Below, in pieces: positions 2,349 through 33,640 of a DNA stretch of 64,000 nucleotides (the stretch's first letter is position 1; the number at the start of each line of letters is the position of its first letter). Below the pieces are notes generated by a model, which saw nothing but the letters and a program-made list of their open reading frames with translations, was not told where the DNA came from and searched no databases. The translations under genes were made by a program, and so were the position numbers. This stretch comes from Yuukianura sp. NJ FZ-2021 (taxonomy: Eukaryota), in the NCBI GenBank assembly GCA_046563655.1, contig CM102286.1, positions 11,594,001 to 11,658,000 of the forward strand, in the 5' to 3' direction.

Positions 2349-4540
2349 ATGTTTGCTAAATTTCAGAAAATGCAGGCGTTGAATATTGAAGCTGCCAGTA
2401 AGCATGCCGTTGACCTTGTGTCAAATTTTGCTCCCCTCTCGGGCGGAGGCACCAGCACCCCTTTGTCTCTCAACACCCCTGATATTCTGAACTCACTCAT
2501 TTCAATTACATCAAATCCGTTCTTTGGCTCATCAGCACCATCAAATCAAGCATCCACGGCGATTTCCGCTGCAACAACTTCCGCACAAAATAGCGCCAGT
2601 GGAGATGAGGATAAAAAAGTTTTTGCAACTTTGGAAGTTTCAACTGGGTCCAGCGTAGCATCAAATCCTGCTGGAAATGGTTCTGTTACTGGAAATACTC
2701 CAGTTCCATCCACAGTTCAATCTCTGCGTTCCCAGTTTATCAAAGACAGTCTCAAGCTAACGATTCAGACCAAGCGGAAATCCAGTGGTAAAGAAGTGTT
2801 GGATGTCCAGGCAGACCTACAAGAGAAAGTGAAAATTCGTGAAGAGGTAGATGTGACAGATACTAATTCTTCACACTTCCAGTTCCGCTCTGTTAAGAAT
2901 TCAGTTGAGACACCAAATAAGGTTTTTACTTTGACAAAATTCTGTGTCATTTTTTGTTGTTCAGAGTTTTGTTTACAACGTTGTTTTTTTAACCCCCCAG
3001 TTTGGAGTTTTTGCTTTTCAGTCTAAAACTTTTAGTCGATGCGGTTTCGGAATTCGTGTTGTTAACTTTTAGGCAAATTGTACGTAGCCTCCAGTGTTCC
3101 TGGGCAGACAACCGAATTGCATTTTCTACAATAGGTTATCTAGTCATTCGGGATTTCCAAACCGAAATATTTGCTTCTCAAATAATTTTACCATCTATTT
3201 AGCACCAATTATCATTACACTACACATACAATTAATTCTCATAGAAAGAAACAGAAAAGCGCGTTTTGCTAATTTCAGCCAAAAGAGAGTTCGAGTTGTT
3301 GGACAGTCTAGTGCAGGAAAAAAATTTTTTTAACGAACATTGCATTGGTAGCTACCACTCTTTTGGAGAATTTCGAAAAAAAAAATTCATAAATGCCCTA
3401 TAAACCGTGCCCGGTAACGTGGTAGTGACATCTGATTTTGTAGTGAATGGACGTAATTGGTCACAAAAATTTGTTGTTGAACATTTGTGTTAGGTTCAAA
3501 CATTCTCTAATATTGTTACGTGTAGTTTGTTACTGTTTGCCGCCTTGTCGCCCTAAACTCCTCTAGTTTCGGTGCATGTAGGGATTAGTTGTATCCCTTG
3601 TAACCACACGATGTCACTGCCGTAATAAATATATGGCTAAATTTGCAAAGTTGCAAGTTTAACAAGCCTTCTGTAACAGGTTGGGCAGTTCCAATGGATA
3701 GTAAAAATATGACGGCGGTTGTGACATCGTGTGGTATAAGAGAGGCTACTAAATCCTTAGCGTAACTGTGCTTTCTGTTGTACATTTCGGGTTTAGTAGG
3801 TAGTAGTAATTATATTTTACGTATTCTTTTGTTTTTTTAGTTAACTCCTGAGGACGAAGAAAGAAGGAGGCGTAGGCGGGAAAGGAATAAAATTGCAGCA
3901 ACAAAATGCAGAAATAAGAAAAAGGAAAAGACTGGGCTATTAGTGCTGGTAAAATATTATATACTACTATAATTGTAATGGTAATTAAATAGGAGTTTAG
4001 AAATTTTAATGTGAGCTTAATTTAGAAAATTAAGTTTTTTTTTTTCCATTCTGGGTATCTTAGAACTTAAAATGAAATAACAATATTTTTTCCACTTTCT
4101 CCCTGGCACTTAAAACATTAGATAACACGCGAGCTATAAACCAGAATCTAGGGTACGGACTTTTCCCGGGGTTTTCAACTTACTTTTGAACTACCAAACG
4201 GCTACCAAACAATATCATAAAAAACGTTTGCTCATGCGATAACTAAATACTAAACAAATAATAATAACACATTACTCTTTTTGTCATTTAGGAATCACAA
4301 ACCTTGGAACGAACCAACGTGTCACTGAAGAGCGAGATTTCCAAATTAGAGCAGCAAAGGCAGCGCCTTGCTGAAATCCTAGCAGCTCATGCGCCATTGT
4401 GTTTGATGAAAAAAGGCGCTCCAGGTCGTGTGCAAGTATCTTATAACCGGAGTTTAGACGTACCTTCAAATCCCTCTGCATTTTACCAACTCCAGCAAAC
4501 AACTCCAGCGCGACACCACATTTCAGTACAAAGGAGTTAA
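2349..4540 (+). CDS. ATF3: ATF3-like bZIP transcription factor
   Basis: Exons 2349-2846, 3841-3948 and 4292-4540. Contains the motif [13 protein letters not shown], the basic region [28 protein letters not shown] and the leucine zipper [33 protein letters not shown]. Confidence 0.9.
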
Positions 4541-5200: not shown

Positions 5201-8200
5201 TTATTGTGATTCTAACCCAGCGTCATCGTAGCATGCTTGGTACCGCATCTCCTTTTCCGCCATTTCATAAGAAATTTCGTTGACTTTGGCATATATATTA
5301 ATTAGTGCTTCCGGTAGCAGTACATAACTAATGTAGTCACTCCACTGTAGGAAAGAAAAATGAGTGTTAGTGAGTACAGATAAATAAATAGTAAGTTTAC
5401 CTTAGGCCGGTCAGAGGTATCCGGAATGAAATATTGGAGCAGCATTGTGATAATGGAACTCGTTTGGTCATGATCGAACGGTATCGAGACGCTCATTTCC
5501 TGAAGACGCTTGATTCCAGCCGGTCCTTGCAAGTAAGTCTAAATTGTAAGTGTCGACAGTTATATTGTGTAATTATTTAAAAAAAAAAAAAAGTTGAATT
5601 AAATGTTGAAGTATACGTACGGTACTTCGGGCGTTGGGAACCTCCCCTTCGAAAATTTGGCGCAGTGCAGGTCTAATGCTAAGGTAGTGATCTTCCAACT
5701 TTTCGAACGTAAGATCTGTAATCTTCCTGTAAATCCAAAATGAAATCAGTAAATCTCGATTTAATTATTAGAAGTAGTTACTGAAGTTCTTACTTGCAGT
5801 GGATTTTGAAACTACGACTTTTCCGAGAGTATTCCGGAATAATGTTGAGATAGCACATGGACTTTTGTGAAAGATCGTATCCGTCTCCTGCAAATACAAA
5901 TAGCAAGGAAATTAATTGTCGTCGTATATGTCGCAGATCACGAATTCCAACTCGATTGAATGTAATAAACTTTAAGCCTTGTACACCATCCCAATTGAGT
6001 ATTCTAACAACTTCACACTATAGCTTACCTTCAGGTTCGTAAGAGTCGTGTACTTTAGCATTTTCGTGTACCCGGTTGAGCAATTCTCGGATAAGATCTT
6101 GTCCTGCGTATGGATAAGGTTCATACTCATTATCACTGGAGTCCTCTTCCAAAAGATCCGGAGCAGAGTGATGGGAACGTCCAGGAACAAGATCGCGTTT
6201 ATTCAATGACTGACCACTTCCTTCATTTTGTGGCTGAGACGGTAGTTCCGTAATGTCTGGACTTAGGGCACGTCTACCTCTGTTCATTCTAACTTCAGGG
6301 TTGACTGTCTTCTCGTGTATCGTAGAGGTGTCGACGTTTTTGCTACTTAATGTTTTGAGGAGTCCTACACCGGCGCTTAGCATATTCGGGTTACACATAA
6401 TTTGTAATGTGGAAAGCTTGGAAGGTTGAATCTGATTTGCAGACAAGTTTGGTTTTTTAACAGGAGGAATAAATGGGTAGTGATGTTGAGTTAAAGCTTT
6501 CTTCGGAGTTCGAGGCGCAGGATGAGCCGGAGGAGGCATCATTTGTGAAGATTCATTAGAGGTAGTATTAGTAATTGCATTACGTGTATGACTGACGAGT
6601 TGACCTACGCTACGGTCTTCTGAAATTTGTTGATTTCCAGCGTTCTCTTCAGCCTCTTCCATGGTAGGTGTCGGTGTGTGTACGGGCAAATTGTACACAC
6701 TACTAACTGGAGGAATGACGAAGTTATTTGTATCTTCGAAGCTTAAGGATCTTCTGTAGCCAGATTCTTCCACCTCTGGAAATTGAGAATTGGAAACGGA
6801 ATGTGTAGAATGAACAGTACTCATGTCGCCTCGAGATTTTCTTGATAATCGAGTTGTCGATTCTCGGACGTTTCTTTTTTCAACTGTAACGCAAGGAGTT
6901 AGTATTGGTCGATTATACGATGGTGGGTCCCTGTCAATCGGAGTCATAGTTTCTGGTATTAAGACAGGCATTTCTGGATCGATCACAATATCTGCCAACT
7001 CGGTTCTCGCAGCATCAATCCAATCATCGGCAATGATTAATGGTATCGGTTCAGTATTCGTGGGAAATTTACGTTTTTTGCTTCTTTTGCTGCCACTTTT
7101 CTTGATTTTCGGCAACACTTTTGTTACAGCAGTTGAGCTTGAATACAATAAGGTATCGATGTCCTTTGAAGTAAGGGAGTTTGTCTTTTTAGTAGGTTGG
7201 AATGACGAAGATGTTGTCTTAGGCGGGGTCATTTCCTTTCCCAAACTTAGATGGGAAGCCCTGTTATCCTCTTCATATCTTGGATTTCGGATTTGAGGTG
7301 CACTACTTTCAGTTTGTGATTTCTCATTCCCCAAAGGCGCAGTACTATCCTCAGTGGATACCGTGGTAAAAGTTGTATGCCGCCTCTTCATCCCGCTGGT
7401 TTGTTTTGCACTGGTTTTTAGCTTCAAGGACGTGGTATTGTAACCGGTACGTTTTAAAACCTCGGATGCAGCAAATAGCATTCTGGTTTCAATGCTGTCT
7501 AAGCTTTCGTCCAAATTATCGCTACAAGTGCTATTGAACTTGCCTGTTCGGCTATTCTCCTGGCTGTGTGCTGTGACTGTTTTCGGCTTATTTTCGTGGC
7601 CCTTCTTACTTAGCTTGCTCATCCTTTTCTTAAGTTGGACTTGTTGGCTCAAACTTCTAACTCTGGTATCGGTTTTCTGCTTTTGATGTTTTGAATGATT
7701 TAGGAGTTGTAAACCAGGTTTTTCAATATCTTGTGTCGGTATTGGCTCATTGTAATGCGACGTTCCCTTTACACGTTTGTGTTTGACGTGCTTGCTTTGA
7801 GAAGCGTCGTTGGTCACTAAGGTATTTTCTTTTGTTTTAACTGTGGTGCATGCTTTACTAAATTCCCGCAAGTCTGATTGCGGAGCTGGAGCATCAATAT
7901 CGGGCAGACTTAGGTTGTCGTCGTCATCACTGCAAACCAGTTTGTCATCGGTGTGTAACTCCTTCTCCATATAACCATCATTGGACTCTTCATCTTGTTC
8001 TTCATAATATGTTTGTCCAGTTTTTGAAGTAACAGCATCCCGAAGACGTTCCACACCAAACGTCCGAGAAGGACTTATATAAGATGTTTCCGTAATAGTA
8101 CCTCTTGAAAGTGTATTTCTAAATTCTCTGCGATGGGCAGACCTATATTCACAAACGATTTTTGATCCATGTACATATTTCTTTTGAAAAAAAAAAGGTA

Positions 8201-9461
8201 TTATTAATCTTATCTGTATAAACTTTTTCGCCTTTTTTAAACTTACTTTTTACTTGTAAGCGCTTTCTTCGATTTTGTAGGTTGCACATATGCAAGTATG
8301 TCTTCTCTCTTATAAGTGAGTTCCTTTTTAAGCCTCCTCGAGTCGTCTGACATAGACAATGTTCTCTTGACTACTGCAGCCTTGATATACGCCCTTGTCG
8401 AAAGAGTTAGGATTCGTGATCCTCCTAAAATATGAATATCTATGAAGACTCTTACAGACTAAAATTTGCACCATTATAAAATCTAAAGAATACCAATGTC
8501 AGTTGCCCATAAGCGTATTCATTCTAGTGTGATACACTATTTGGTGAGATCGACGTGTGACATATTCATAATTACAATACAATTTGTGACTTTCTAGCCA
8601 TACTTAATTAATTACATTACATACCTGTGGCTATATCGTAATCGCCATGAGTATTCAAAGCACTCATTGAATCACAATCGTCCTCGTCGTCTGTCCAACA
8701 ATTCCGACGTGTGTCCAAAATCCGAGTAACATGTGTGGTTTCATTTACAGAGTCAACGCATAAAGAATACCTAAAAGAAATGTAGCAAGTCAATTGGATA
8801 TGACGTGATTGGCAGTTTATCGAACCACTTTAACTTACGCCAAATGAACACAAGGTAATTTTGCTTACCCTAATCCCACTTCCGTACCGTACACAATATG
8901 TGGTCCTGTAGAGCATGTTTCCTTTGTGCTTGATACACAGGACTCAGCCGCTGGTTTTAGTAAAACTTTGATTTCCTAAGTTAGAACAGATTGGCAGGTT
9001 AAACTTAAGGACAAAAGAGTAGTATGGAATACAAAGTTTGCATAAAAAAAAATTGGGCTAAAAATTGTTAATGTTGGCAACTTGATTGTTGATCATTCTG
9101 CCTGCTGAATTGGAATTGTATTAATTGATAACTGTGGAACCCAATTGCCCAATTGGAAATCTGGAGGAGATAAACCACGTTTTACCAGAAGAATCAAACA
9201 TCATACCTTCCAATGTTTTCTGTCAGCCCACTTGGAAGTTACAAAGTCCTCCCCATCCTCGTGACAAGTTGTAGGCAAAAACGTAATTTCGATTGGTACG
9301 ACATAACAGCCAACCTGCGTTTGGATAAAGAGAACGACTTTACTTCATCATATAAACATAAAGAACTACCCGGACAGACAAGAAAATACGCGATTCGATT
9401 TTTACTATTAAATAACATAACGTTTCCGTACCCTTAAAAGTTCCACATATTTTCCTGGCAT
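5201..9461 (-). CDS. Uncharacterised ~1054-aa protein: SLX4IP-like N-terminus, long disordered middle, PWWP3A/MUM1-C-like C-terminus
   Basis: Ten phase-consistent GT-AG exons: 9461-9432, 9314-9207, 8975-8869, 8770-8625, 8424-8247, 8142-6029, 5887-5794, 5726-5621, 5538-5401 and 5344-5201. The 8142 acceptor is the least certain boundary. N-terminus MPGKYVELLRVGCYVVPIEITFLP..SKWADRKHWKEIKVLLKPAAESCV; C-terminus ..LRQIFEGEVPNARSTTYL..DYISYVLLPEALINIYAKVNEISYEMAEKEM. The gene model is well supported; the domain identities rest on recalled motifs. Confidence 0.8.
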
Positions 9462-28749: not shown

Positions 28750-30224
28750 GGGTCGGAATCCGGAACGGGTTTCTTAAAATCCGGATTTCGGATTTTGACG
28801 GATTTCAATCCTGAAATCCGGATTTAATTCCGGATTTCAATTTCTGTGTTAACTCCCATAAGAAATTCAAAATTGATTTAAGCTGTCGGAATTGCAGGTT
28901 GGAAACACTCGTAGCTAAAACCTTGATGATAAATTTGGCGTGTTTATTTTTTGAATCAAATTACTAGTGTTGAAAAAAAATGAAACATTGGCACAACATT
29001 AGCACAACATTGGCACAACATTGGCACAACATTACAACATTGGTACAACATTGGCACAACATTACAACATTGGTACAACATTGGCACAACATTAGCACAA
29101 CATTGGCACAACATTAGCACAACATTGGCACAACATTGGCACATCATTACAACATTGGCACAACATTGGCACAACATTAGCACAACATTAGCACAACATT
29201 GGCACAACATTGGCACAACATTGGCACAACATTGGCACAACATTGGCACAACACTAGCACAACATTGGCACAACATTAGCACAACATTGGCACAACATTA
29301 GCACAACATTAGCACAACAGTACCACAACATTGGCACAACATTAGCACAACATTAGCACAACATTGGCACAACATTACAACATTGGTACAACATTGGCAC
29401 AACATTACAACATTGGTACAACATTGGCACAACATTAGCACAACATTGGCACAACATTAGCACAACATTGGCACAACATTGGCACAACATTACAACATTG
29501 GTACAACATTGGCACAACATTACAACATTGGTACAACATTGGCACAACATTAGCACAACATTGGCACAACATTAGCACAACATTGGCACAACATTGGCAC
29601 ATCATTACAACATTGGCACAACATTGGCACAACATTAGCACAACATTGGCACAACATTGGCACAACATTGGCACAACATTGGCACAACATTGGCACAACA
29701 CTAGCACAACATTGGCACATCATTACAACATTGGCACAACATTGGCACAACATTAGCACAACATTGGCACAACATTAGCACAACAGTACCACAACATTGG
29801 CACAACATTAGCACAACATTAGCACAACATTGGCACAACATTACAACATTGGTACAACATTGGCACAACATTGGCACAACATTGGCACAACATTAGCACG
29901 ACATTAGCACAACATTGGCACAACATTGGCACAACATTAGCACAACATTGGCACAACATTGGCACAACATTAGCACAACATTGGCACAACATTAGCACAA
30001 CATTAGCACAACATTGGCACAACAATACAAAATACGGTATTTTACGAACCCTGAAATTGAGTAAATCTGAGGTTGGATATTTTTTTGATACCGCACATGC
30101 ACTCGAATAGCTCTTGAAATCCGTAGAAATCCGGATTTCAGTATTTAAAAATCCGGATTTTGGATAATCCGAATCCGTCAAAAATGCGGATTTGAATCCG
30201 GAGCCAAAATCCGGATTCCGACCC
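28750..30224. mobile_element. TIR element (8-9-bp TSD) carrying an internal satellite array
   Basis: 15-bp TIRs GGGTCGGAATCCGGA/TCCGGATTCCGACCC. Flanks TACACATAG (28741-28749) and AACACATAG (30225-30233). Multiple subterminal AATCCGGATT palindromes at both ends. Confidence 0.85.
28984..30025. repeat. Tandem array of an 11-bp unit (GGCACAACATT and variants), about 1.04 kb
   Basis: Roughly 95 units GGCACAACATT/AGCACAACATT/GGTACAACATT plus 8-bp deletion units. It produces the spurious MLCQCCANVVP and AQHWHNI ORFs. Confidence 0.98.
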
Positions 30225-31419
30225 AACACATAGCAGATAATCATGAACCTTTGGCAAACCGCCTGCAACACCTAAAAGGAATGTGTGGACAGAGTTTGTT
30301 GACCCTCATTTGACCCTCCACGTCGTCCACTAGTCGGATTTTTCCATTTGCAGATAATGTGCCTTAATAACATTGAAAAAATTAAGCCTTAACAACAATT
30401 CTGTGAGTGTATAAACAACTCTAATAAATAGCCCTGAACTTTGACGCGCTGCTTCGCTGACAAGCTTTACGGCTACTTCTCTATGACGTTTAAAGCGGTT
30501 TACTTTGTTTCCATGTTTGTCTTGTTTTAACATTTACCATTATGTTTGCAAAATTATACATTGTGTATTCTTGTGTCTCTTCCTTTCCCCAAAATTCTAT
30601 TCTCAAAAAAGCTTCACCTTTGTGGATTTGTTCAAATTTCTTGCTTATGCTTGGAGAGAATTTAAGCGAAAAATCGAATGAAAAATTTCAACGCAAATAA
30701 TTATTGCCCGAGTGGTGATGCCGTGTTCTAGGGTTACGTATAGTATTGTACAATTTGTATACTATGTTCCAAGCTGAATTGTATAAAATCTGTAGAGACA
30801 ATTGAAAATTCAATTTGTACTAATGTGTACCGTGTGAATATAGGCTCCGTAAAAAAGTCGTACGAACTCTGCCTTTACTCATACAGAACAATCCGCAGAA
30901 TCCGAGGAGTAGTACGACCATTGAGGAGGTATGCAAATGAGACCTCGGACCGCTGATTACAATGAGTACAATACTGTTTGGCTAACATTTTATGCAGCAC
31001 CACATGTGCTTCGGTTCCATTGTGAATTTGCGGGCTAGGAGTGGCACACTGCCACTGCAAACAGTTTTCTTTCACGAATACAGAGTACGAGTCCACTGTG
31101 GTTAATCTTCAAAGAAGGTACGGTACCATGTTGAATTAAATTCCAGCTGTTTACTTTAATTTATTGTTGTTCTGGTGTAACGAACGTATTCGAAATGATT
31201 GCCATTTACCTACATATTAGCGAGCAGTTCGGAATTCATCTCGCGTGGGCTGGGGACAACTTGTAAATCAGCTGTTTTGTATGTTAGGTCGGGAAAGCCT
31301 CAAAAAACCTTGGGACAATTTCTGTTGGATAAGTTAGTGTTTTAGTTTTTCTAAATGTTAAGTTAGGAAGTGAGAAAGTTTGAGCGCGATTTTCTCTGTG
31401 ACGTCACTGCAACTACTGG

Positions 31420-33640
31420 AAACGTCTATGCAAACATTGTCAGACCTCGACGAGAAGATCAAAGAATTCATTTTGGATAGATCGATTTGATGAAATTCAA
31501 CGGAGATTTAACGGACTGGTTGGGTTGGTGGGCCCAGTTTAAGAAGATTGATGAAGATGAGGAGCTCCACAATTCAGACAAATTCAGTTACCTGGTGCAG
31601 TCCATGGTGTTGGGCTCACGTGCAGAAGAAGTTGTGAAGCGATATCCCCAGTCTTCTGAAAATTACCCGAAAGCCCTTGCTGCACTGAAGGAACGATTTG
31701 GCAAGGAGAAGTTGCTGAAGCAAGTGTATGTCCGTGAGCTAATCAAATTGATTCTGGACAATCGCTCAAAGGAAAAGACATCACTGGCTACACTAATTTT
31801 GGGAAGGACGGATCAAGAGAAAATCTGAAGATTGAAATTGAGAATGAGGAACAGCGGAAGTTAGCCCGGTCTGGATTCGGCCTCATCCCAGAAAAACGGA
31901 AAAATCAGAATCGACCACAACATGCAGATGAAGATGTTCCAACTTCAGCTGGACTTTTCAGTGGAACAAGTGGAGGTGGGAAGGCAGGAAAAGTCTCATG
32001 CATTTTTTGTGAGAAGCCCCACGACTCCAACAATTGTTACAAAGCCCAGAAGATGAAGTTGGAAGAGAAGAAGGAAATTGCATCCAAGAAACGTGCTTGT
32101 TTTTCGTGTCTAAAAATTGGTCATGTCGTCTCAAAGTGCCCCATTCGTGTTAAGTGCTTAATTTGTGGGAAGAGACATGCTATTCTTTTGTGTCCTGGCC
32201 CAGAAGCGAAACCAAAAGTGGCTACTGAGGAGCAGACAGTTCTGAGCAGTTTGAACTGTACCAGTGAAGTGCTCCTTCGTACACTAATTGTTCGATTGGA
32301 AAATCCAGTGACTCATCAAACCACGAAACGTGAGAATGATTTTGGATTGTGGTTCCCAAAAATCCTACATTCTCAAGAAGACTGCAGAGGCCCTGAATTT
32401 AGATGTGAAGGAGACTGTCACTCATGAATCACTTGCTGTTTATGAAGTCGTGGGAAACCGACATTCAATTTTGGGAATCGGAGTCACCGCAGACATTAGA
32501 AATAGCATTTCTAATGATTGACGTTAATGAGAGTGACCGGAAGTATCTCCAGTTTCTTTGGTGGGAGCAGTTATCCTACATCACTTGGCCAAAAATAGGA
32601 GTGTGGCACCGACTGTCGTGAGTTTAGTGGAAAAGTCCCTTTACGTTGACAATTTGGTTTTTGCAGTAGACGGAGAAAGTGACCTTGGAACTATTCGTGA
32701 GGTGTCTACTTCAATTATGTCAACAGCCAAGATGGAACTACGACAGTGGGAACAAAGTGGTATTTGTGGTGAACAGTTTGTGACTAGTGTTTTGGGTCTA
32801 AAATGGAATAAGAAGACTGACACTCTGTTTTGTGACTCTGTTCCATTTGAAATACCACTTAAAATTACTAAAAGAGTAATTTTGTCTGTTTTTCAGAAAC
32901 AAAAAGCCTAAAATTCAAATTCCCAGTCAGAAGCATTTGACACTACCAAATCAGTCATCGAGGGTCTACGAGTCGTCAGAGATGAAGAGGGCATAGTTAG
33001 AGTGTCTATTGCTTTGTTTCGTTCGTTTCTGCAAACGTAAGCAAAGACCGTCAATTGTTTACTCGGACAATGGAACTAACTTTGTAGGTGCCGTGAACCT
33101 GTTCAAGAAGATTGACAACTGGAGACAGCACTTTGTGAGTCATCGTGCCAACACTGAAGAAGGAGCAAAAGAATCTACAGCAGCTCCACCAAGAAATCAG
33201 AGATCGTTTGGCCAGAATCCGGACGAAAAACGGAACTCAGCTTCGTCCCATACAACGTTTGATTCCACTGGAGATTCGGCATGACGTCACAGAAATCGTC
33301 ACTGATGAAGAGCCGAAGAGTGGAGTCAAGAAGAGCATCACAAAGCCAAGAAAACTCCAGGAACACATTTCAAGTTTAAAGGTTAGTTTAATTTGATTGG
33401 CTAAGTTATGGTTTCATTTTTGAGTTTAAAATTAAGTTTACATTTTAAATGTTTCACTTTCTGAGTTTTCTTTCCAATTGGTTAAAGTTTCTTCGGTAAT
33501 TGTTTACCTCAGAAAGTGGGAAGAAATGTTAACAAGTAAGAACGTGTTGAGATAGAAGTACAAGAGAAGAATCTGTAAGGATTAGGATTGGAATTAATCG
33601 GTTTGATTAATTAAAAGTATCATCTGGTCGTTTTTCTACA
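31420..33640 (+). mobile_element. Decayed BEL/Pao LTR retrotransposon (gag-pol remnants, PPT, probable 3' LTR)
   Basis: BEL gag KFNGDLTDWLGWWAQF..DKFSYL..ALKERFG; three Cys-His knuckles (CIFCEKPH..C, CFSCLKIGH..C, CLICGKRH..LC); protease ILDCGSQKSY; RT SLYVDN; VLGLKWN; integrase IVYSDNGTNFVGA; terminal RPIQRLIPLE. Frameshifts and stops are present. Purine tract 33511-33526 is followed by TGTT...CA (33527-~33640). No matching 5' LTR seen. Confidence 0.92.

Follow-up and report, generated by a model that had tools for sequence, protein, structure and literature searches.

A candidate ten-exon gene of Yuukianura sp. with a C-terminal domain of apparent distant kinship to the RTC4-like and PWWP3A/B C-terminal domains

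In a 64,000-nucleotide stretch of the genome of Yuukianura sp. NJ FZ-2021 (GenBank assembly GCA_046563655.1, contig CM102286.1, positions 11,594,001 to 11,658,000 of the forward strand; this whole stretch is the window, and its own positions are used throughout), the minus strand from 9461 to 5201 holds a chain of ten exons that, spliced by coordinate, yields a 3165-base reading frame encoding 1054 residues plus a stop. The C-terminal end of the encoded protein is homologous to proteins of springtails and of metagenomes, and a structural model of one of these homologues is helical. We are inclined, with somewhat more confidence than doubt, to regard the chain as a single gene and its product as a mostly disordered, probably nuclear protein that carries a helical C-terminal docking module and acts in the context of chromatin, DNA damage or telomeres. 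An earlier note, made from the letters of the window, had proposed a phase-consistent ten-exon gene of about 1054 residues, and such a gene model is indeed found in the sequence: all nine introns are of the GT-AG type and measure between 56 and 231 bases, the frame is kept throughout, and every residue string that had been cited for the gene can be located. The open reading frame of 678 residues that the proposal had taken as the middle exon proves to be the table-11 (bacterial-code) reading, from the first GTG, of a 743-codon stop-to-stop frame at 6018..8249.

The conserved C-terminal region is encoded by four small exons on the minus strand. It begins in exon 7 (5794..5887, residues 895-926) and continues through exon 8 (5621..5726, residues 926-961) and exon 9 (5401..5538, residues 962-1007), the latter carrying the PF pair that is invariant in the family, to exon 10 (5201..5344, residues 1008-1054), which contains the VLLPEAL...AEKEM helices and ends with a TAA stop at 5203-5201. 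Beyond the stop, AATAAA occurs twice, at distances of 58 bases (5143-5138) and 103 bases (5098-5093). An exhaustive HMMER search of 1.84 billion proteins with the 47 residues of exon 10 (E <= 0.001) matched 14 representatives. We judged 12 of these to be true relatives, and in each case the alignment falls on the C-terminal end of the spliced protein. Protein P0011 matches residues 891-1044 of the model with an E-value of 1.7e-28 and runs without a gap across junctions 6/7, 7/8, 8/9 and 9/10; exon 7 is colinear with it over the first two of these. P0002 is 59% identical to residues 963-1054 (E 2.5e-35), P0006 aligns to residues 849-1047 (E 3.2e-21), and P0005 and P0009 are also colinear with the C-terminal part (E 7.2e-17 and 1.4e-21). 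Exon 8 is colinear with P0011, P0005, P0006 and P0009, and the last ~45 residues of exon 6 can be aligned to P0006 and P0011.

Metagenomes add support of another kind. A scan with an alignment designated A2 recovered four loci (L001 to L004) from 106 pattern matches, and one of these contigs, L001, contains equivalents of exons 8, 9 and 10 in the same order, the exon 8 equivalent having identical acceptor and donor positions. The last intron of L001 (L001:380-470) lies seven codons further downstream than that of the window (5345-5400), and P0008 carries a 35-residue unspliced insert at the position of this L001 intron; as the spliced proteins are colinear with that of the window, intron position evidently varies among the relatives. 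At the level of sequence, the last five exons, and with them junctions 6/7 to 9/10, are confirmed by independent proteins and by metagenome contigs. A more distant relative, L004, has a similar layout: its 10.6-kb contig holds a 752-codon, S-rich open reading frame without a family match (L004:1-2259) that runs off the 5' end of the contig, and small exons follow ~2.5 kb downstream (L004:4855-5007).

Three of the 12 relatives carry an organism name, and all three are springtail proteins: ODM91841.1 of Orchesella cincta, CAL8093974.1 of Orchesella dallaii and CAG7731623.1 of Allacma fusca. Closer relatives, with 59-65% identity, exist only as metagenome fragments (P0002, P0003, L001, L002 and L003). 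A search of prokaryote genome contigs with A2 produced 35 pattern matches and no relative. Word-indexed protein searches gave no match either for exon 10 against longer proteins or for A2 against proteins of 600-2000 residues, a range outside which Orchesella-sized and domain-sized proteins fall. The protein would belong to a small family, the named members of which are so far only uncharacterised springtail proteins. Two of the 14 matches of the exon 10 search were dropped as relatives: P0001 is a pentatricopeptide repeat (PPR) protein whose E-value of 5.5e-27 is summed from 11 short stretches, and P0014 has an internal repeat and gave no PF20886 row. Both multi-stretch matches to this 47-residue query are thus internally repeated proteins, and in such cases summed partial matches mislead a ranking by whole-protein E-value.

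To which domain family does the conserved tail belong? The likeness to the C-terminal domain of PWWP3A/B and to fungal Rtc4 that had been noticed by eye is borne out by matches that are consistent, if sub-threshold. Exon 10 alone matches the Pfam family PWP3A-B_C (PF20886) with an E-value of 1.3e-4 and 22.4 bits over profile positions 94-124 of 141. Six of the seven true homologues that were scanned match PF20886 at one common stretch, with 15.4-20.7 bits and E-values of 4.1e-4 to 0.019, and homologues that span the whole domain (P0005, 20.7 bits; P0011, 19.7 bits; P0006, 19.6 bits) score below exon 10 alone. The RTC4 family (PF14474) is matched by P0011 at 15.4 bits, and the scan of exon 10 returned no RTC4 row. 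L004 matches both families with its last exon, RTC4 with 21.0 bits (E 3.8e-4) and PF20886 with 17.9 bits (E 0.0031), and thus bridges them. When the six homologues, exon 10 and L004 are considered together, all PF20886 matches lie within profile positions 61-137 of 141, with E-values from 1.3e-4 to 0.019. A language-model feature search of the Atlas with P0005 points in the same direction, its three best matches being clusters automatically named 'Restriction of telomere capping protein 4', with 189, 184 and 172 of 256 features in common and scores of 0.89 (under the tool's 0.9 line and hence a lead only), 0.86 and 0.81. P0005 is the protein ODM91841.1, which its source entered as 'Ubiquitin thioesterase otulin'. 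Its only Pfam match is a sub-threshold one to PWP3A-B_C, and together with the Atlas result this makes the otulin name look wrong.

Several points weigh against this assignment. Every Pfam score reported here falls under the curated gathering cut-off, which is 27 bits for PF20886 and 23.7 bits for RTC4; the matches fall chiefly on the last third of the profiles; P0009 had no PF20886 match in the Pfam scan; and the standing of the best Atlas score as a lead belongs with these. A PWWP domain was found in none of the exons, and Pfam reported no family for exons 2-9, the 704-residue exon 6 included. Given the sub-threshold domain scores and the lack of a PWWP domain, sequence comparison places the tail in the RTC4/PWWP3A-C domain group as a diverged and distant relative and not as a PWWP3A orthologue. 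An AlphaFold2 model of P0011 built from A2 consists of eight helices, with a mean predicted local distance difference test score (pLDDT) of 77.7 and a predicted template modelling score (pTM) of 0.70. When the A2 profile was compared with PDB sequences, five chains appeared with E-values of 0.07-1.2, all of which we took as chance. We envision the conserved folded part of the protein as its C-terminal ~155 residues (exons 7-10), which would form an eight-helix domain and may be distant kin of the RTC4-like and PWWP3A/B C-terminal domains.

Are the first five exons part of the same gene? Exon 1 (9432..9461) opens with an ATG at 9461-9459, comprises ten codons and ends at the donor AGG/GTACGG (the slash marks the splice site); it is drawn from model and sequence, with no outside support. 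Exon 2 (9207..9314, residues 11-46) contains the strings GCYVVPIEITFLP and SKW on which the earlier note had relied, and its GC content is 0.44, as against 0.34 in either flanking intron. Exon 3 (8869..8975, residues 47-82) ends in phase 2 and is followed by exon 4 (8625..8770, residues 82-131) and by exon 5 (8247..8424, residues 131-190), the donor of which is AAAAA/GTAAGT and the unspliced reading of which hits a stop one codon on. Exon 6 (6029..8142, residues 190-895) is a long region rich in S, T, K, P and E that matches no family and has its earliest in-frame ATG at 7970. All of these exons are on the minus strand. Antisense to exon 6, a 160-codon open frame at 6814-7296 on the plus strand is most simply read as a shadow of the coding strand.

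Base composition, codon usage and strong splice sites speak for the coding nature of this part. The GC content of exons 1-5 is 0.42 and that of introns 1-5 is 0.32, the corresponding values for the confirmed exons 7-10 being 0.44 and 0.29, and each of the nine introns lies below both of its adjoining exons. Codon log-odds, which were trained on 2,959 codons from other long open reading frames of the window and set against a null of 644 open reading frames, are highest in the proposed frame for all ten exons, hence also for each of exons 1-5, and are negative in all frames for all nine introns. The sum over exons 1-5 is +12.7 bits; exon 5 contributes +7.1 bits, and exon 4 scores +4.6 bits in the proposed frame as against -17.1 and -12.8 bits in the other two. 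At the proposed acceptor of exon 6 (8142), the GC content rises from 0.22 to 0.39. The 57 codons from there to the first in-frame ATG score +7.7 bits at a GC content of 0.39, whereas the 35 open codons immediately upstream are intron-like (-6.5 bits, GC content 0.22). Exon 6 thus begins with 57 coding-looking codons that include no ATG, and it therefore appears to be internal and to require an upstream partner; the sole one in phase is GTAAGT, with which exon 5 ends. We infer that exons 1-5 reside on the same transcript as exon 6.

Other observations count against this extension of the gene. Exons 2 and 3, with per-codon scores of -0.02 and +0.02, are unremarkable in comparison with the null open reading frames (75th percentile 0.001). 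Among 89,162 positions in non-genic parts of the window, 4.9% show a stop-free run of 58 codons, which is thus not rare by chance (a run of 93 codons is seen at 0.8%). Exon 6 has a weak, pyrimidine-poor acceptor, gtttgtgaatatag/G. Residues 1-848 have no relative either in the word-indexed protein search with exon 6 or among the 12 aligned relatives, and the full-length annotated springtail relatives, with 328 and 342 residues, start with M and lack the N-terminal module, so that the long N-terminal stretch does not count as a confirmed trait of the family. A metagenome scan with exon 5 gave 595 pattern matches and no relative. The metagenome loci found with A2 stop short of the region of the N-terminal exons; L004 does have 4.8 kb of upstream sequence, but its large open reading frame leaves the contig. 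Smith-Waterman comparison of model residues 1-250 with the first 160 residues of the L004 frame (p ~0.14, 500 shuffles) and of exon 6 with the whole L004 frame (p ~0.47, 100 shuffles) yielded no match. Within the window, a pattern derived from exon 2 retrieved only exon 2 itself, and it had no match in L001-L004; the test is circular and proves nothing.

It is conceivable, if in our view unlikely, that two units have been joined here, with an RTC4-like protein of ~807 residues starting from the ATG at 7970 and exons 1-5 forming a separate gene of ~190 residues or not being exons at all. The chain was assembled by eye, and chance might yield some such series of exons with GT-AG introns in phase; the weak exon 6 acceptor and the N-terminal exons for which no relative was found also fit such a division, as do P0005 and P0006, which start with M ~190 residues ahead of the domain. 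The stop one codon past the exon 5 donor would supply a natural end for the upstream unit, but it is simply the TAA within GTAAGT as read in phase 2, and neither AATAAA nor ATTAAA occurs between exons 5 and 6. The division would also leave the coding-like codons ahead of the ATG and the sharp shift of composition at the acceptor without a role, and it sits poorly with exons 1-5, which are exon-like in GC content and score best in the proposed frame in five of five cases. The short springtail annotations, for their part, may lack small upstream exons. On balance we retain the single ten-exon gene.

Within a single gene, the head could be more than a small module of its own. According to the earlier note, the first ~85 residues resemble human SLX4IP, and the gene as a whole fuses an SLX4IP-like part to a PWWP3A-type part. 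In this reading the first ~120 residues would be a beta-grasp of the SLX4IP/MAJIN type, with five strands about a single long helix, that docks by strand addition on the helicase-like domain of XPF, the protein would be a genome-maintenance scaffold with two working ends, and the arguments for one gene from GC contrast, codon score and the start of exon 6 would hold just as well. Like a division into two units, we hold it to be unlikely. Human SLX4IP is described as having a MAJIN-like beta-grasp in its N-terminal 122 residues and a disordered C-terminal half, with structures deposited as 9QED and 9QEE (as far as the available text of PMC12804970 goes), and the position and size of the head match this layout. 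Residues L16/V17, W32/F33, K91/R92 and V115/V116 are reported to be of importance for XPF binding or folding (available text of PMC12804970 and PMC6821277), and the first two pairs agree with the positions of the human motifs that the earlier note had cited, which makes that citation plausible. To the eye, and without the aid of a prediction tool, the first 105 residues consist of hydrophobic, strand-like runs and one long amphipathic stretch in alternation and read as strand, strand, helix and strands.

The searches did not lend this fusion substance. Pfam gave no family for exons 2, 3, 4 and 5 taken singly (whether the Pfam copy used includes the SLX4IP family was not checked) and none for exons 1-3 read through as one frame, with stops as X and both introns multiples of three. 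The Pfam family of SLX4IP, which we take to be UPF0492, was returned by no search. Comparison by phmmer with solved-structure chains (E <= 10) gave nothing for exons 2, 3 and 4, the presence of 9QED and 9QEE in the copy being unchecked, and, when exons 1-3 were read through, a single chain that is unrelated (E 1.5). These Pfam and phmmer tests of the head are weak ones, the pieces being 35-58 residues long and the HMMER filters discarding matches above E ~0.1. In the Atlas, exon 2 gave weak leads of the nucleotidyltransferase type only (0.76-0.81), and no SLX4IP cluster was listed. The likeness of the head to SLX4IP thus finds no match in Pfam, among solved chains or in the Atlas, and comes down to three short motifs compared with the human sequence as the earlier note gives it. 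Conservation of SLX4IP is given as Xenopus to humans in the available text of PMC6821277, and the annotated springtail relatives have no such head; nor did a literature search find a paper that treats both SLX4IP and PWWP3A. With no relative for residues 1-848, and full-length springtail relatives of 328 and 342 residues, the fusion is unproven. We consider it slightly less probable again that the head represents a genuine, highly divergent beta-grasp of the SLX4IP/MAJIN type, joined to an RTC4/PWWP3A-C-type domain in one arthropod protein. A further reading, in which the N-terminal module would be what remains of a Mab-21-, OAS- or DZF-type protein with a nucleotidyltransferase fold, is very improbable: the best Atlas clusters for exon 2 are Mab-21 (0.81 and 0.78), DZF_N (0.78) and OAS1_C/PAP_NTPase (0.76), and the ten best family-bearing matches all share the family or clan of the top one, but the scores lie below 0.9, shuffled proteins reach 0.8 in a third of cases and, likewise in a third, have all ten matches in one clan, the query is a fragment of only 36 residues, Pfam matches none of the Mab-21, OAS or DZF families, and 190 residues are too short for such a domain.

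How might a protein of this architecture act? Under the single-gene model that we prefer, the first ~190 residues (exons 1-5) would form a small second module that we assign to no family, and the ~700 residues of exon 6 would serve as a flexible linker with a sequence resembling a nuclear-targeting signal. This basic stretch, KRSKKRK at residues 542-548, suggests a nuclear location. The C-terminal domain may be a docking module for partners associated with chromatin, DNA damage or telomeres. We know of no biochemical function of the RTC4 or the PWP3A-B_C domain, a circumstance that tells against so specific a role and because of which the docking role is an analogy only. The analogy draws on the telomere-capping name of Rtc4 and on PWWP3A, which is recruited by 53BP1 according to the available text of PMC12045991.

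What the finding contributes to the RTC4/PWWP3A-C domain group, itself poorly understood, is a divergent branch in animals, with springtail proteins as its named members and metagenome contigs as the only source of the others; current Pfam cut-offs miss this branch. If the head were SLX4IP-like after all, SLX4IP would occur outside vertebrates, and a module that docks onto XPF would be physically tied to a domain whose namesakes are linked with telomere capping in fungi and with 53BP1-dependent chromatin changes in humans. One reading of such an arrangement would be an ancestral single scaffold that was afterwards split or trimmed, and a natural fusion of this kind would provide a testable hint about the role of the RTC4/PWWP3A-C domain.

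Elsewhere in the window, a leucine-zipper (bZIP-type)-like open frame, recognised by eye, lies convergently just past the 3' end of the gene (4292-4540, plus strand). Two open frames at 28956-30271 on the minus strand consist of many copies of a tandem Cys/Gln-rich unit (CQCCANVV.ML), and GC skew between 28001 and 30000 is strongly negative (-0.20). Open frames at 31481-32911 on the plus strand include a segment that looks, again by eye, like a Cys-His zinc knuckle and suggests a remnant of a retroelement gag/pol region.

Set beside known systems, the protein shares with SLX4IP and MAJIN a small module at the extreme N terminus followed by a long disordered region, the likeness of short motifs being that claimed in the earlier note. 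Human SLX4IP, whose C-terminal half is disordered, has no folded C-terminal domain as far as the available text of PMC12804970 describes it, whereas the tail of the model presented here would be folded. As regards that tail, exon 10 and six of the seven homologues find their best Pfam match in the C-terminal domain of PWWP3A and PWWP3B (PF20886), yet at less than 27 bits; human PWWP3A has its PWWP domain at residues 408-505 (available text of PMC12045991), and none was found in this gene. The RTC4-like domain (PF14474) of the fungal 'restriction of telomere capping protein 4' is likewise a C-terminal helical domain that follows a long region without a family. The RTC4 clusters nearest to P0005 in the Atlas are fungal and 355-600 residues long, and all RTC4 scores obtained here are below 23.7 bits. 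The nearest comparison is with the springtail proteins ODM91841.1 (342 residues), CAL8093974.1 (328 residues) and CAG7731623.1 (partial, 176 residues). They reach only a third of the model's length and have nothing that matches its residues 1-848, but their C-terminal domain of ~140-155 residues is colinear with that of the model at 30-39% identity, and they have in common with it the invariant PF pair, the motif V..PE....A..N......AE.EM and a short helix ahead of the domain.

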